Below are positions 3,796 through 18,879 of a stretch of 38,552 bases of DNA, piece by piece; positions within the stretch are counted from its first letter, which is position 1, and each line of letters begins with the position of its first letter. Both the position numbers and the translations under genes were made by a program. Source of the DNA: Escherichia phage vB_EcoP_PHB20; the sequence record MN481366.1; one strand, written 5' to 3'. The notes beneath the pieces were generated by a model. The model was not told the DNA's origin and made no database searches. It saw only the letters and a list, made by a program, of their open reading frames with translations.

Positions 3796-6447
3796 ATGAA
3801 CACAATTAACATCGCTAAGAACGACTTCTCTGACATCGAACTGGCTGCTATCCCGTTCAACACTCTGGCTGACCATTACGGTGAGCGTTTGGCTCGCGAA
3901 CAGTTGGCCCTTGAGCATGAGTCTTACGAGATGGGTGAAGCACGCTTCTGCAAGATGTTTGAGCGTCAACTTAAAGCTGGTGAGGTTGCGGATAACGCTG
4001 CCGCTAAGCCTCTCATTACTACCCTGCTCCCTAAGATGATTGCGCGCATCAACGACTGGTTTGAGGAAGTGAAAGCTAAGCGCGGCAAGCGCCCGACAGC
4101 CTTCCAGTTCCTGCAAGAAATCAAGCCGGAAGCTGTAGCGTACATCACCATTAAGACCACTCTGGCTTGCCTAACTAGCGCAGACAATACAACCGTTCAG
4201 GCTGTAGCAAGCGCAATCGGTCGGGCCATTGAGGATGAGTCGCGCTTCGGTCGCATCCGTGACCTTGAAGCTAAGCACTTCAAGAAAAACGTTGAGGAAC
4301 AACTAAACAAGCGCGTAGGGCACGTCTACAAGAAAGCATTCATGCAGGTTGTCGAAGCTGACATGCTCTCTAAGGGTCTGATGGGTGGCGAGGCGTGGTC
4401 TTCGTGGCATAAGGAAGACTCAATTCACGTTGGGGTGCGCTGCATTGAGATGCTCATTGAGTCAACCGGAATGGTTAGCTTACATCGTCAAAACGCTGGC
4501 GTAGTGGGGCAAGACTCTGAGACTATCGAACTCGCGCCGGAATACGCTGAGGCTATCGCTACTCGCGCTGGGGCACTAGCGGGCATTTCCCCAATGTTCC
4601 AGCCTTGCGTAGTCCCTCCTAAGCCTTGGACTGGCATTACTGGTGGTGGCTATTGGGCTAACGGTCGCCGTCCTCTGGCGCTGGTACGCACTCATTTTAA
4701 GAAAGCACTGATGCGCTACGAAGATGTTTACATGCCTGAGGTGTACAAGGCGATTAACATTGCGCAAAACACCGCATGGAAAATCAACAAGAAAGTCCTA
4801 GCGGTCGCCAACGTAATCACCAAGTGGAAGCACTGCCCTGTAGAGGACATCCCAGCGATTGAGCGTGAAGAACTCCCGATGAAACCGGAAGACATCGACA
4901 CGAATCCTGAGGCACTCACCGCGTGGAAACGTGCTGCTGCCGCTGTGTACCGTAAGGACAAGGCTCGCAAGTCTCGCCGTATCAGCCTTGAGTTCATGCT
5001 TGAGCAAGCCAACAAGTTCGCTAACCATGAGGCCATCTGGTTCCCTTACAACATGGACTGGCGCGGTCGTGTTTACGCGGTGTCAATGTTCAACCCGCAA
5101 GGTAACGACATGACCAAGGGACTGCTGACGCTGGCTAAAGGTAAACCAATCGGTAAAGAGGGTTACTACTGGCTGAAAATCCACGGTGCAAACTGTGCGG
5201 GTGTCGATAAGGTTCCGTTCCCGGAGCGCATCAAGTTCATTGAGGACAACCACGAGAACATCATGGCTTGCGCTAAGTCTCCACTGGAGAACACTTGGTG
5301 GGCTGAGCAGGATTCACCATTCTGCTTCCTCGCGTTCTGCTTTGAGTACGCTGGGGTACAGCACCACGGCCTGAGCTACAACTGCTCGCTGCCTCTGGCG
5401 TTCGATGGGTCTTGCTCTGGTATTCAACACTTCTCCGCGATGCTCCGCGATGAGGTGGGTGGTCTTGCTGTTAACCTACTGCCTAGTGAAACCGTTCAGG
5501 ACATCTACGGGATTGTTGCCAAGAAAGTCAACGTGATTCTGCAAGAAGACGTAATCAACGGGACCGACAACGAAGTAGTTACCGTGACTGATGAGAACAC
5601 TGGCGAAATCTCTGAGAAAGTTAAGCTGGGTACTAAGGCACTGGCTGGTCAATGGCTGGCTTACGGTGTAACTCGTAGCGTGACTAAGCGTTCAGTCATG
5701 ACGCTGGCTTACGGGTCCAAAGAGTTCGGCTTCCGTCAACAAGTGCTGGAAGATACCATTCAGCCAGCTATCGATTCCGGCAAGGGTCTGATGTTTACTC
5801 AGCCGAATCAGGCTGCTGGGTACATGGCTAAGCTGATTTGGGAAGCTGTAAGTGTGACTGTGGTGGCTGCGGTTGAAGCGATGAACTGGCTTAAGTCTGC
5901 TGCTAAACTTCTGGCTGCTGAGGTCAAAGATAAGAAGACTGGAGAGATTCTTCGCAAGCGTTGCGCTGTGCATTGGGTGACTCCTGATGGCTTCCCTGTG
6001 TGGCAGGAATACAAGAAGCCCATCCAGACTCGCTTGAACCTGATTTTCCTCGGTCAGTTCCGTCTACAGCCTACCATTAACACAAACAAGGATAGTGAGA
6101 TTGACACACACAAACAGGAGTCCGGTATCGCTCCTAACTTTGTGCATAGCCAAGATGGTAGCCACCTGCGTAAGACTGTAGCGTGGGCGCATGAGAAGTA
6201 CGGAATCGAATCGTTTGCACTGATTCACGACTCCTTCGGGACCATTCCGGCTGACGCTGCCAACCTGTTCAAAGCTGTACGTGAAACTATGGTTGACACC
6301 TATGAGTCTTGCGATGTACTGGCTGACTTCTACGACCAGTTCGCTGACCAGTTGCACGAGTCTCAATTGGACAAAATGCCAGCACTTCCGGCTAAAGGTA
6401 ACTTGAATCTCCAAGACATCCTTAAGTCAGACTTCGCGTTTGCGTAA
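3796..6447 (+). CDS. 1: T7-type single-subunit DNA-dependent RNA polymerase (gp1)
   Basis: 883-aa ORF MNTINIAKNDFSDIELAAIPFNTLADHYGERLAREQ...; same length as and near-identical to T7 RNAP as recalled; consistent with T7-specificity promoters throughout. Confidence 0.98.
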   Translation: MNTINIAKNDFSDIELAAIPFNTLADHYGERLAREQLALEHESYEMGEARFCKMFERQLKAGEVADNAAAKPLITTLLPKMIARINDWFEEVKAKRGKRPTAFQFLQEIKPEAVAYITIKTTLACLTSADNTTVQAVASAIGRAIEDESRFGRIRDLEAKHFKKNVEEQLNKRVGHVYKKAFMQVVEADMLSKGLMGGEAWSSWHKEDSIHVGVRCIEMLIESTGMVSLHRQNAGVVGQDSETIELAPEYAEAIATRAGALAGISPMFQPCVVPPKPWTGITGGGYWANGRRPLALVRTHFKKALMRYEDVYMPEVYKAINIAQNTAWKINKKVLAVANVITKWKHCPVEDIPAIEREELPMKPEDIDTNPEALTAWKRAAAAVYRKDKARKSRRISLEFMLEQANKFANHEAIWFPYNMDWRGRVYAVSMFNPQGNDMTKGLLTLAKGKPIGKEGYYWLKIHGANCAGVDKVPFPERIKFIEDNHENIMACAKSPLENTWWAEQDSPFCFLAFCFEYAGVQHHGLSYNCSLPLAFDGSCSGIQHFSAMLRDEVGGLAVNLLPSETVQDIYGIVAKKVNVILQEDVINGTDNEVVTVTDENTGEISEKVKLGTKALAGQWLAYGVTRSVTKRSVMTLAYGSKEFGFRQQVLEDTIQPAIDSGKGLMFTQPNQAAGYMAKLIWEAVSVTVVAAVEAMNWLKSAAKLLAAEVKDKKTGEILRKRCAVHWVTPDGFPVWQEYKKPIQTRLNLIFLGQFRLQPTINTNKDSEIDTHKQESGIAPNFVHSQDGSHLRKTVAWAHEKYGIESFALIHDSFGTIPADAANLFKAVRETMVDTYESCDVLADFYDQFADQLHESQLDKMPALPAKGNLNLQDILKSDFAFA

Positions 6448-6455
6448 CGTCACAT

Positions 6456-6478
6456 TAATACGACTCACTATAGAGGGA
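6456..6478 (+). promoter_or_regulatory. T7 RNAP promoter phi1.1A, copy 1
   Basis: taatacgactcactatagaggga; +1 G at 6473. Confidence 0.85.
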
Positions 6479-6529
6479 CAAACTCAAGGTCACTTAATGA
6501 GTGGCCTTTATTATTGACCTTCTTCCGGT

Positions 6530-6552
6530 TAATACGACTCACTATAGAGGGA
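6530..6552 (+). promoter_or_regulatory. T7 RNAP promoter phi1.1A, copy 2 (duplicated)
   Basis: Identical 23-mer; +1 G at 6547. Confidence 0.85.
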
Positions 6553-6603
6553 CAAACTCAAGGTCACTTAATGAGTGGCCTTTATGATTGACCTTCTTCC
6601 GGT

Positions 6604-6626
6604 TAATACGACTCACTATAGGAGAA
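6604..6626 (+). promoter_or_regulatory. T7 RNAP promoter phi1.1B
   Basis: taatacgactcactataggagaa; +1 G at 6621. Confidence 0.85.
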
Positions 6627-6700
6627 CCTTAAGGTTTAACTTTAAGACCCTTAAGTGTTAATTAAAGATTTAAATTAAAGAATTACTAAGAGAGGACTTT
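6627..6700 (+). other. AT-rich region corresponding to the T7 primary origin of replication
   Basis: ccttaaggtttaactttaagacccttaagtgttaattaaagatttaaattaaagaattactaag directly downstream of the phi1.1 promoters, where T7 oriP maps. Confidence 0.5.
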
Positions 6701-6704
6701 AAGT

Positions 6705-6833
6705 ATGCGTAACTTCGAAAAGATGACCAAACGTTCTAACCGTAACGCTCATGACTTCGAGGCAACTAAGGGTCGCAAGTTTAATAAACCATTACGAACC
6801 CGTGCACATAAACGCTGCTGGGAGGGTCAATAA
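6705..6833 (+). CDS. 1.1: gp1.1 (42 aa, basic)
   Basis: ATG 6705 after gagagg SD; MRNFEKMTKRSNRNAHDFEATKGRKFNKPLRTRAHKRCWEGQ. Confidence 0.8.
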   Translation: MRNFEKMTKRSNRNAHDFEATKGRKFNKPLRTRAHKRCWEGQ

Positions 6834-6834
6834 G

Positions 6835-7086
6835 ATGGGACGTTTATATAGTGGGAACTTGAATGACTTCAAGGCTGTTTGCAACAGGCTCTACCAGTTA
6901 GACTTTGCTGTTATAGTTGTTGAGCAGGAAGGTTCACCAAACATAAAGGCGACCATGTACCTTCGGATTGAAGACCGTACTGGTCGCATAGTTGTTCAGG
7001 AGGAGATTCACCACTGCGACGAAGACGTTCTGTACAATATGGGAACCGCTTGGCTGAACCGTATGTACGACCAGTTGAAGCACTAG
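6835..7086 (+). CDS. 1.2: gp1.2, inhibitor of host dGTP triphosphohydrolase
   Basis: Internal ATG of track ORF 6751..7086 with gggagggtcaataag upstream; MGRLYSGNL... 83 aa. Confidence 0.85.
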   Translation: MGRLYSGNLNDFKAVCNRLYQLDFAVIVVEQEGSPNIKATMYLRIEDRTGRIVVQEEIHHCDEDVLYNMGTAWLNRMYDQLKH

Positions 7087-7089
7087 AAG

Positions 7090-7112
7090 TAATACGACTC
7101 AGTATAGGGACA
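7090..7112 (+). promoter_or_regulatory. T7 RNAP promoter phi1.3
   Basis: taatacgactcagtatagggaca (characteristic G at -5); +1 G at 7107. Confidence 0.8.
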
Positions 7113-7113
7113 A

Positions 7114-7148
7114 TGCTTAAGGTCGCTAATTGAGTGGCCTTAGTCATT
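7114..7148 (+). promoter_or_regulatory. RNase III processing hairpin R1.3
   Basis: gcttaaggtcgctaattgagtggccttagtc. Confidence 0.55.
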
Positions 7149-10478: not shown

Positions 10479-10933
10479 TGTCTCGTGTACAGTTCAAACA
10501 ACGTGAATCCACTGACGCAATCTTTGTCCACTGCTCGGCTACCAAGCCAAGTCAGAACGTGGGTGTCCGTGAGATTCGCCAGTGGCATAAAGAGCAAGGT
10601 TGGCTCGATGTTGGGTATCACTTTATCATCAAGCGTGATGGCACTGTAGAGGCGGGTCGAGACGAGATGGCTGTAGGTTCTCACGCTAAGGGCCACAACC
10701 ACAACTCTATTGGTGTCTGCCTTGTGGGTGGTATCGACGATAAAGGTAAGTTCGAAGCTAACTTTACGCCAGCCCAAATGCAATCCCTTCGCTCACTGCT
10801 TGTCACACTTCTTGCTAAGTACGAAGGTGCTGTTCTTCGCGCACATCACGATGTGGCACCAAAGGCTTGCCCATCGTTCGACCTTAAGCGTTGGTGGGAG
10901 AAGAACGAACTGGTCACTTCTGACCGTGGCTAA
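10478..10933 (+). CDS. 3.5: Lysozyme / N-acetylmuramoyl-L-alanine amidase, T7 RNAP inhibitor (gp3.5)
   Basis: 151 aa MSRVQFKQRESTDAIFVHCSATKPSQNVGVREIRQWHKEQGWLDVGYHFII...; near-identical to T7 lysozyme as recalled. Confidence 0.95.
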   Translation: MSRVQFKQRESTDAIFVHCSATKPSQNVGVREIRQWHKEQGWLDVGYHFIIKRDGTVEAGRDEMAVGSHAKGHNHNSIGVCLVGGIDDKGKFEANFTPAQMQSLRSLLVTLLAKYEGAVLRAHHDVAPKACPSFDLKRWWEKNELVTSDRG

Positions 10934-10953
10934 TTGAACTCACTAAAGGGAGA
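10931..10953 (+). promoter_or_regulatory. T7 RNAP promoter phi3.8
   Basis: taattgaactcactaaagggaga; +1 G at 10948; followed by hairpin gggagaccacaacggtttccc (R3.8-like). Confidence 0.75.
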
Positions 10954-17541: not shown

Positions 17542-17600
17542 TAAACTCAAGGTCCCTAAATTAATACGACTCACTATAGGGAGATAGGGGCCTTTATGAT
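17541..17600 (+). promoter_or_regulatory. RNase III site R6.5 (hairpin enclosing phi6.5)
   Basis: ataaactcaaggtccctaaa ... gggagataggggcctttatgat flanks the promoter, as in T7. Confidence 0.5.
17562..17584 (+). promoter_or_regulatory. T7 RNAP promoter phi6.5
   Basis: taatacgactcactatagggaga, perfect consensus; +1 G at 17579. Confidence 0.85.
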
Positions 17601-17638: not shown

Positions 17639-17893
17639 ATGTTAACACCTATTAACCAATTACTTAAGAACCCTAACGATGTTCCAGACGTGCCTCGTGC
17701 GACTGCTGAGTATCTACAGGTTCGATTCAACTATGCGTACCTCGAAGCGTCTGGTCATATAGGACTTATGCGTGCTAATGGTTGTAGTGAGGCCCACATC
17801 TTGGGTTTCATTCAGGGCCTACAGTATGCCTCTAACGTCATTGACGAGATTGAGTTGCGCAAGGAACAACTAAGAGACGATGGGGAGGATTGA
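17639..17893 (+). CDS. 6.5: gp6.5 (84 aa)
   Basis: Track ORF after phi6.5; size and position match T7 6.5. Confidence 0.85.
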
Positions 17894-17897
17894 CACT

Positions 17898-18164
17898 ATG
17901 TGTTTCTCACCGAAAATTAAAACTCCAAAGATGGATACCAATCAGATTCGAGCCATTGAGCCAGCGCCTCTGACCCAAGAAGTGTCAAGCGTAGAGTTCG
18001 GTGGGTCTTCTGATGAGACGGATACCGAAGGCACCGAAGTGTCTGGACGCAAAGGCCTCAAGGTCGAACGTGATGATTCCGTAGCGAAGTATAAAGCCAG
18101 CGATAATGGCTCCGCTCGTATGAAATCTTCAATCCGTAAGTCCGCATTCGGAGGCAAGAAGTGA
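17898..18164 (+). CDS. 6.7: gp6.7 (88 aa, virion protein)
   Basis: Internal ATG of track ORF 17880..18164; MCFSPKIKTPKMDTNQIRAIEPAPLTQEVSSVEFGGSSDETDTEG... Confidence 0.85.
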   Translation: MCFSPKIKTPKMDTNQIRAIEPAPLTQEVSSVEFGGSSDETDTEGTEVSGRKGLKVERDDSVAKYKASDNGSARMKSSIRKSAFGGKK

Positions 18165-18565: not shown

Positions 18566-18591
18566 GTTATGGGTAAGAAAATCACGAAGCA

Positions 18592-18879
18592 GTGAAGAAA
18601 GTCACCAAGCCAATTACGAAAGCCGTGAAGAAAGTTACCAAGGAAGTGGCCAGTCCGATTAAACAGGTTGTAGGTGGTCTGGCTGGCGGTGCAGGTGAAG
18701 CACAGGTTGTGGAGGTCCCACAGGCTGCCACTCCTGCTGCACAGATTGGTGACATACCTGAGAAAGAGGTCTCCACCGAGGATGAAGCACAGACCGAAAG
18801 CGGACGTAAGAAAGCTCGTGCTGGCGGTAAGAAGTCCCTGAGTGTAGCTCGTAGCTCCGGTGGCGGCATCAATATTTAA
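18592..18879 (+). CDS. 7.3: gp7.3 (tail-associated), 5' end out of frame with the RBS-proximal ATG at 18569
   Basis: Body VKKVTKPITKAVKKVTKEVASPIKQVVGG...SLSVARSSGGGINI matches T7 gp7.3; ATG 18569 after aaggaggtataagtt opens MGKKITKQ then TGA at 18593-18595; body continues in the other frame from GTG 18592. Confidence 0.7.
   Translation: MKKVTKPITKAVKKVTKEVASPIKQVVGGLAGGAGEAQVVEVPQAATPAAQIGDIPEKEVSTEDEAQTESGRKKARAGGKKSLSVARSSGGGINI

Follow-up and report, generated by a model that had tools for sequence, protein, structure and literature searches.

Does Escherichia phage vB_EcoP_PHB20 carry an additional promoter and an additional RNA processing site in front of its primary replication origin and, if it does, is the addition a real part of the genome, how did it come about, and does it matter to the phage? 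The question is raised by the region between gene 1 and gene 1.1 of sequence record MN481366.1, which was analysed at its full length of 38,552 nucleotides and is called the window below. The module formed by the promoters phi1.1A and phi1.1B and the AT-rich DNA next to them is the textbook case of transcription-primed replication initiation, and R1.1 is a standard model substrate of RNase III. A sequence-only reading of the window had proposed three in-phase T7 promoters at 74-bp intervals in this region, the first two being phi1.1A copies that are each followed by the same RNase III hairpin, with one base of difference between the units, and the third being phi1.1B.

Each part of that description was borne out. 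The promoter-core pattern TAATACGACTCACTATAG ends at 6473, 6547, and 6621 with no mismatches at any of these positions, and the core match is 18 of 18 (-17 to +1) at all three sites. Searched with up to three mismatches allowed, the same pattern gives 17 matches in the window, where chance would give 0.01. At 6455-6621, Tandem Repeats Finder detects a repeat with a period of 74 bp, 2.3 copies, 98% matches, and a score of 327. In a repeat search, the units 6455-6528 and 6529-6602 are identical at 73 of 74 bases (99%), T6512 in the first against G6586 in the second being the only difference, and this agreement is far beyond chance. After each of the first two promoters comes AGGGACAAAC, an initiated sequence of the phi1.1A type. 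The third promoter of the array, spanning 6603-6621, is followed by GGAGAACC, the initiated sequence of the phi1.1B type (GAGAACC). Alignment with V01146, EU734174, and DQ100054 makes the same assignment, with the phi1.1A start GAGGGACAAAC in copies 1 and 2 and the phi1.1B start in copy 3. The spacer from gene 1 to gene 1.1 is 257 nt long in the window. We consider it probable that the window holds a real, lineage-specific tandem duplication of 74 bp, which places three promoters instead of two and a second R1.1 hairpin before the origin, and which was made by mispairing of phi1.1A with phi1.1B. Table 1 lists the features of the region.

Table 1. Features of the duplicated region and its neighbours, in window coordinates.
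Feature	Position	Strand	Basis
Gene 1, T7-type RNA polymerase, 883 aa	3796..6447	+	Full-length match to T7 RNAP chains (1cez, others), 2008 bits
Duplication unit 1: phi1.1A copy 1 and R1.1 hairpin copy 1	6455..6528	+	Upstream flank TCACAT is the phi1.1A context of the unduplicated relative L019
phi1.1A promoter copy 1 (-17 to +6; +1 = G6473)	6456..6478	+	18/18 core; GAGGGA as in annotated T7 phi1.1A
R1.1-type RNase III hairpin copy 1 (as RNA)	6473..6522	+	Predicted fold; homologous to the RSL_R1.1 stem-loop of T7.1
T, sole difference between units; nucleotide marked as the RNase III cut site of R1.1	6512	+	T7.1 'C_R1.1'
Duplication unit 2: chimeric promoter and R1.1 hairpin copy 2 (ancestral G6586)	6529..6602	+	Repeat searches, alignment
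Middle promoter (+1 = G6547), chimera of CTTCCGGT phi1.1B-type upstream flank and GAGGGA phi1.1A-type start	6530..6552	+	Context comparison
R1.1-type RNase III hairpin copy 2	6547..6596	+	Predicted fold; from the stem onward identical to T7 and relatives
phi1.1B promoter (+1 = G6621)	6604..6626	+	Exact core; 6575-6650 is 100% identical to T7 5877-5952, with annotated phi1.1B
AT-rich segment of the primary-origin region, phi1.1B to gene 1.1	6622..6704	+	Low GC
Gene 1.1, 42 aa	6705..6833	+	ORF; exact protein on many T7-like contigs; Pfam PF08200
Gene 1.2, 83 aa, dGTPase inhibitor, next gene transcribed from the array	6835..7086	+	IME390 record 5980-6231, offset +855

T7 itself (V01146) is annotated with one phi1.1A, at 5848, and one phi1.1B, at 5923, which lie 75 nt apart between genes 1 and 1.1. 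This is the layout that the sequence-only reading had given for T7, and the two phi1.1A copies in T7 that it had allowed for as a contrary case are not there. Phages 13a and T7.1 are annotated with the T7 layout, again one phi1.1A and one phi1.1B, and the record of T7.1, a refactored genome, also annotates an R1.1 stem-loop and a putative RNase III cut site between the promoters. Alignment to the T7 gene 1 to 1.1 region, which had been proposed as a check, places exactly one extra phi1.1A plus R1.1 unit in the window relative to T7, CICC 80001, ESh1, JacobBurckhardt, 13a, and T7.1. From the 3' arm of the hairpin through phi1.1B and into the AT-rich DNA (6575-6650), the window and T7 are 100% identical. 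The T7 gene 1-1.1 region (Dunn and Studier map; V01146, DQ100054, EU734174) offers the same elements in the same order and orientation and with near-identical sequence. The window differs from it by the one added unit, which makes three promoters and two hairpins, by a promoter spacing of 74 nt rather than 75 nt, by a hairpin loop that is 1 nt shorter (a variant common to ESh1 and JacobBurckhardt), and by U instead of G at the cut-site nucleotide of the upstream copy. JacobBurckhardt (MZ501078.1, comparison locus L005) has a peculiarity of its own: its phi1.1A reads CACTATATAGGGAC, with T where the others carry the initiating G, and phi1.1B starts with GGGGAACC in this phage. Initiation may be shifted in position or in strength as a result.

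The array lies between the polymerase gene and the AT-rich origin segment. The RNA polymerase encoded by gene 1 aligns end to end with T7 RNA polymerase at about 98% identity, as estimated by eye from the printed alignment, and its specificity-loop segment is conserved except for A754T. The gene 1 polymerase is predicted to read the three promoters. Directly after phi1.1B, GC content is 0.25 over 6620-6719 (60-nt windows), and in alignment the AT-rich segment differs from T7 at one base. The window thus has the arrangement that marks the primary origin, T7 promoters with AT-rich DNA directly behind them in the interval from gene 1 to gene 1.1, as the sequence-only reading had held in placing the array next to an AT-rich origin. 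In T7, phi1.1A and phi1.1B are named as the primary origins, and secondary origins are used if the primary origin is deleted (PMC8373140). A coding role for the duplication was considered and rejected, since only open reading frames of 28 aa or less cross it on either strand. A host-signal scan of the duplication region found no sigma-70-like promoter.

The duplication is rare. A query spanning the joint was matched in one piece by only two accessions, both of IME390, among the 171 records that contain the region. In a separate megablast search, all other records gave two-piece matches spanning about 387 bp, which corresponds to one unit. Ten environmental T7-like contigs, found through the exact gp1.1 protein, have gene 1-1.1 spacers of 175-189 nt with two promoters each, and all 17 of 17 comparison loci have exactly two promoters, 72-78 nt apart. 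Exact patterns of 32 nt and 25 nt for the novel joint were absent from IMG/VR, from JGI metagenome contigs, and from GTDB genome contigs. As a positive control, the pattern of an ordinary phi1.1A was found in five IMG/VR contigs, one copy in each, and the negative result for the joint is therefore meaningful. Altogether, the duplication was absent from everything else that was compared: about 170 further T7-like records, the 10 environmental contigs, and the 5 contigs from IMG/VR. Exact-protein look-ups with the RNA polymerase, gp1.2, and the ligase brought up no independent assemblies on record, and the portions of the literature mentioning IME390 that were available to us gave no description of the duplication in the gene 1-1.1 region. 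In the records and collections searched, the duplication is confined to the IME390 lineage, whose sequences possibly come from one laboratory.

The joint between the two units suggests how the duplication was made. In the unduplicated relative L019, which shares the TCACAT upstream context and the 74-nt spacing of the window, phi1.1A and phi1.1B have in common an identical core of 19 nt, TTAATACGACTCACTATAG, repeated 74 nt apart, and the window has the same core; in T7 itself, the core common to the two promoters is 17 nt. The duplicated unit, 74 nt, is exactly the distance from core to core. In the middle promoter, the upstream flank of phi1.1B runs through the shared core into the initiated sequence of phi1.1A, with no bases inserted or lost, and the junction reads CCGG-TTAATACGACTCACTATAG-AGGGAC. 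A chimeric joint of this kind is the mark left by unequal recombination, or by slippage, from one promoter to the other. The novel joint requires a 21-mer (G, the 19-nt core, and A) that an unduplicated genome does not contain, and in reads the string CCGGTTAATACGACTCACTATAGAGGGAC would mark the duplication. In the event that we propose, phi1.1A and phi1.1B, both class II promoters, would have mispaired through the 19-nt core, either during recombination between genome copies or by slippage in replication. The product is phi1.1A-R1.1-(phi1.1B flank/phi1.1A start chimera)-R1.1-phi1.1B, in which the ancestral geometry of phi1.1A, R1.1, phi1.1B (74 nt), and AT-rich DNA is intact and the extra unit stands on its upstream side.

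The extra unit might instead have been imported by recombination with a co-infecting T7-like phage, rather than copied from the resident one; T7-like phages are mosaic, and R1.1 loop variants do differ between relatives. However, the two units agree at 73 of 74 positions and both carry the lineage's own loop variant, CACTTAATGAG, they repeat at the resident interval of exactly 74 nt, the joint falls in the shared promoter core, and a donor unit with T at the cut site was not found in the collections searched. Import is very improbable because both units share the lineage's own loop variant and spacing.

Mispairing of the two promoters also predicts a reciprocal product, and this product has been sequenced. 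The T7 mutant clone T7_1t1 (OL964748.1; comparison loci L021/L025, record positions 4254-4333) has a 75-bp deletion that removes R1.1. Its sole promoter here, GCCAAATC-AATACGACTCACTATAG-GAGAACC, joins a phi1.1A flank to a phi1.1B start, and its gene 1-1.1 spacer is 109 nt. The sibling clones T7_1t2 and T7_1t3 are wild type in this region and have both promoters. The deletion used the same repeat pair and the same crossover zone within the promoter core, and is the exact reciprocal of the duplication. It differs in being a loss and not a gain, in having occurred in T7 proper with its 17-nt core, and in having arisen during Cas9-driven reduction; the T7_1t clones come from CiPGr, a study that reduced genomes with Cas9 and used cassettes directed at genes (PMC9825161). 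As T7_1t1 demonstrates, a phage is viable with a single promoter and without R1.1 at this place. The reciprocal deletion joint was not found in the IMG/VR scan. Carriers of the deletion were sampled through sibling accessions, two-piece wild-type matches being ranked above one-piece matches in megablast.

Related events are on record for T7. In the evolved line T7:LME, a 154-bp tandem duplication with phi13 became fixed immediately downstream of gene 1, and the LME rearrangement swapped segments that are bounded by promoters, phi1.1B bounding one of them (PMC3737178, Cecchini et al. 2013). That case resembles ours in being a promoter-bearing tandem duplication just 3' of gene 1, and its authors considered it regulatory; it differs in that the genome was engineered and rearranged, the selection took place in the laboratory, the promoter and the length are others, and neither an RNase III site nor an origin context is described for it (PMC3737178). 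Promoters in this region act as recombination substrates that change its architecture in both directions. Studier's T7 deletion mutants and the 1991 work of Pierce, Kong and Masker reportedly concern deletion between short direct repeats in T7. Such deletions, by illegitimate or short-homology exchange between direct repeats of about 10-20 bp, would be the same class of event as the one proposed here, with deletion in the place of duplication.

The nearest record to the window is vB_EcoP_IME390 (MH779619 / NC_048082; Teseptimavirus; E. coli BL21, sewage), to which the window is rotated, with position 868 corresponding to record position 13 (megablast). In a full comparison with MH779619, we found five substitutions, one indel of 1 bp, and 12 extra copies of a 13-bp repeat (16 against 4); the repeat array accounts for the length difference of 156 bp. 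The substitutions are at 961, 5439, 23546, 35196, and 35201. They comprise one non-coding change, a synonymous change at RNA polymerase A548, S19P in gp12, and K642E and N643K at the C-terminal tip of the tail fibre gp17. This pattern, typical of host-range adaptation, suggests that the window is a sibling or derivative stock of MH779619. The indel is a 1-bp deletion in a GG run at window position 18588 (record 17734), which shifts the frame at codon 8 of a gene 7.3-like ORF (record 17714-18025; lysine-rich, 103 aa). Either the sequencing is in error at this homopolymer or a tail/adsorption protein has truly been knocked out. A near-repeat of 33 bp at 18580-18642 is a coding repeat of the same gene 7.3-like protein.

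The restriction of the duplication to one lineage makes it necessary to consider an assembly artefact. Only one true unit would then exist, and the 19-nt core would have formed a loop in a small-k assembly graph that was traversed twice, with a G/T polymorphism supplying the mismatch. The single mismatch would indeed be neatly explained by two alleles laid in tandem, and MH779619 is evidently an unpolished contig of the circular type: it starts inside the 13-bp array, its terminal repeat is collapsed, and it has 4 array copies where the window has 16. However, such a loop requires k of 20 or less, and the same 19-mer occurs, in TTAATACG contexts, at the promoters at 17562, 20502, 21541, and 25907. 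Because the 19-mer is present at several promoters, assembly with k of 20 or less should have scrambled the genome, yet the window is collinear with its T7 relatives. Moreover, the phi1.5/phi1.6 pair, 117 nt apart, has a longer shared core and shows no duplication, and the window and MH779619, two non-identical sequences, both have two units with T first and G second. We regard an artefact as unlikely; should it be one, the value of the observation would be as a correction to the RefSeq genome NC_048082. A direct repeat of 74 bp should, on the other hand, be recombinationally unstable in T7. Its persistence together with a substitution therefore needs a recent origin plus a chance mutation, or selection, or an artefact.

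If the duplication is genuine, as we think probable, the processing sites deserve a closer look. Both hairpin copies align to the RSL_R1.1 stem-loop of DQ100054 (T7.1). In predicted folds, the RNAs of both units have a 10-bp upper stem, then an internal loop, and below it a lower stem starting from +1, which is the topology of T7 R1.1; the folding energies are -19.5 kcal/mol for unit 1 and -19.7 kcal/mol for unit 2, compared with -21.1 kcal/mol for T7 R1.1, with z scores of -3.1 to -3.5. Rfam gave no match at E<=1 over 6300-6900, a result that says nothing on function. T7 R1.1 is cleaved by RNase III once, on the 3' side of the internal loop, between UUUAU and G. The cut-site feature 'C_R1.1' of T7.1 marks the G of TTTATGATTG (position 313 of comparison locus L007), and, allowing for the loop that is 1 nt shorter, this annotated site falls at 6512 in unit 1 and at 6586 in unit 2. 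Around the RNase III site, unit 2 is unchanged from T7. Its G is also found in every comparison locus with a recognizable motif, and the T variant is seen only in IME390 and is absent from the other records. The T at 6512 must therefore be viewed as derived, and G as ancestral. In the predicted structure, T6512 would sit in the 3' strand of the internal loop beside the scissile bond, and its modelled effect on the fold is negligible (-19.5 against -19.7 kcal/mol). Internal loops of the R1.1 type limit RNase III to one cut, and the 3' hairpin that is left after cleavage protects the upstream RNA (PMC1540722, PMC3867540).

The substitution has a second possible consequence. With T at 6512, hairpin 1 (6486-6518) has the tail UUUAUUAUU, with 5 T in 8 bases, and a simple consensus scan calls hairpin 1 alone terminator-like, hairpin 2 remaining below threshold. 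Given a weak stem with four G-C pairs, this call appears to be a marginal one, a threshold effect of the scan. When the 130-nt RNA of both units (6473-6602) is folded as a whole, the minimum free energy is -47.2 kcal/mol with the arms of the two hairpins swapped, against about -39 kcal/mol for two local hairpins. The arm-swapped form, if it occurs, would alter the RNase III substrates. It is unlikely to dominate as a long-range structure, because each hairpin can close as soon as it has been transcribed.

From the arrangement of these elements, the duplication would be expected to have three effects. T7 RNA polymerase would have a third start point for transcription into the origin and genes 1.1-1.3; RNAs that read through would be cleaved at two places, which would free a fragment of 74 nt (6512-6585); and the 3' end of the gene 1 mRNA would be set at the first hairpin, which has U rather than G as its cut-site nucleotide. 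For fitness, the outcome is probably neutrality or a mild benefit, and in either case a small net effect. The sequence-only reading had offered altered origin firing or altered gene 1.1/1.2 expression as a possibility, and any such change is likely to be slight. The number of promoters at this place is not critical, because the mutant with one promoter is viable and secondary origins exist, and a small effect is therefore to be expected.

An adaptive explanation would hold that the duplication is real and persisted for the extra transcription that a third promoter sends into the origin and genes 1.1-1.3, and that the G-to-U change was selected for altered RNase III processing or for a weak terminator-like signal. 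Several observations point this way. Of the 74 nt, only the annotated scissile-site nucleotide has changed, and it is G in all other loci with a recognizable motif and T in no other record; hairpin 1 with the tail UUUAUUAUU passes the terminator-like threshold and copy 2 does not; the duplication is retained in two diverged genomes; and in evolved T7 a duplication that includes a promoter became fixed at the corresponding position (PMC3737178). However, a single substitution would be expected to fall on that exact base about once in 74 by chance, about 185 other T7-like genomes manage with two promoters, and the terminator-like call concerns a marginal stem with four G-C pairs. Secondary origins are usable if the primary origin is deleted (PMC8373140), and the one-promoter mutant grows. 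On balance we find adaptation doubtful as the reason for the retention of the array. It is correspondingly improbable that the array is a selected change of promoter dosage at the primary origin, with the upstream RNase III site retuned toward weaker cleavage or partial termination.

If selection nevertheless did act, this phage would serve as a natural experiment in the control of origin firing and class II gene expression by transcription input. One promoter in T7_1t1, two in the wild type, and three in the window make an allelic series for the study of origin use, of gene 1.1-1.3 expression, and of 3'-end formation of the gene 1 mRNA. The three promoters and the two processing sites are unmarked in the GenBank record. 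The duplication is of minor novelty, a previously undescribed but simple change in the copy number of well-known T7 elements; it is a small structural variant of known parts and not a new kind of system.

Several further features of the window were observed in passing. A perfect tandem array of the 13-bp repeat CCTCCTAAAGTCA, 16.8 copies long, occupies 715-932 and adjoins, on the right, a collapsed terminal repeat. Evolved lines of T7 have been described with a '13 base duplication at base 183' (PMC3737178), apparently at the same locus, and the copy number of the array is either truly variable or unresolved by short reads. The window is circularly permuted. Within 1-1112, a phiOR-like promoter lies at 48-65, a left end of the T7 type, TCTCACAG, at about 554, a terminal repeat of about 160 bp, collapsed to one copy, at roughly 554-713, and a phiOL-like promoter at 1095-1112. 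As a linear molecule, the true genome would exceed the window in length by about 160 bp. Downstream of the array, 7089-7148 holds a promoter of the phi1.3 type, GTAATACGACTCAGTATAG, followed by a hairpin segment that is 79% identical to the upper stem region of R1.1; this is presumably the R1.3 site, a second, diverged module of promoter plus hairpin built on a similar plan. Finally, a phi3.8-like site, TAATTGAACTCACTAAAGGGAGA, at about 10931-10953 brings the 17 promoter-like sites (three mismatches or fewer) to 18. The T7 map has 17 T7 promoters, and the 18 of the window equal those 17 plus the one that was duplicated.
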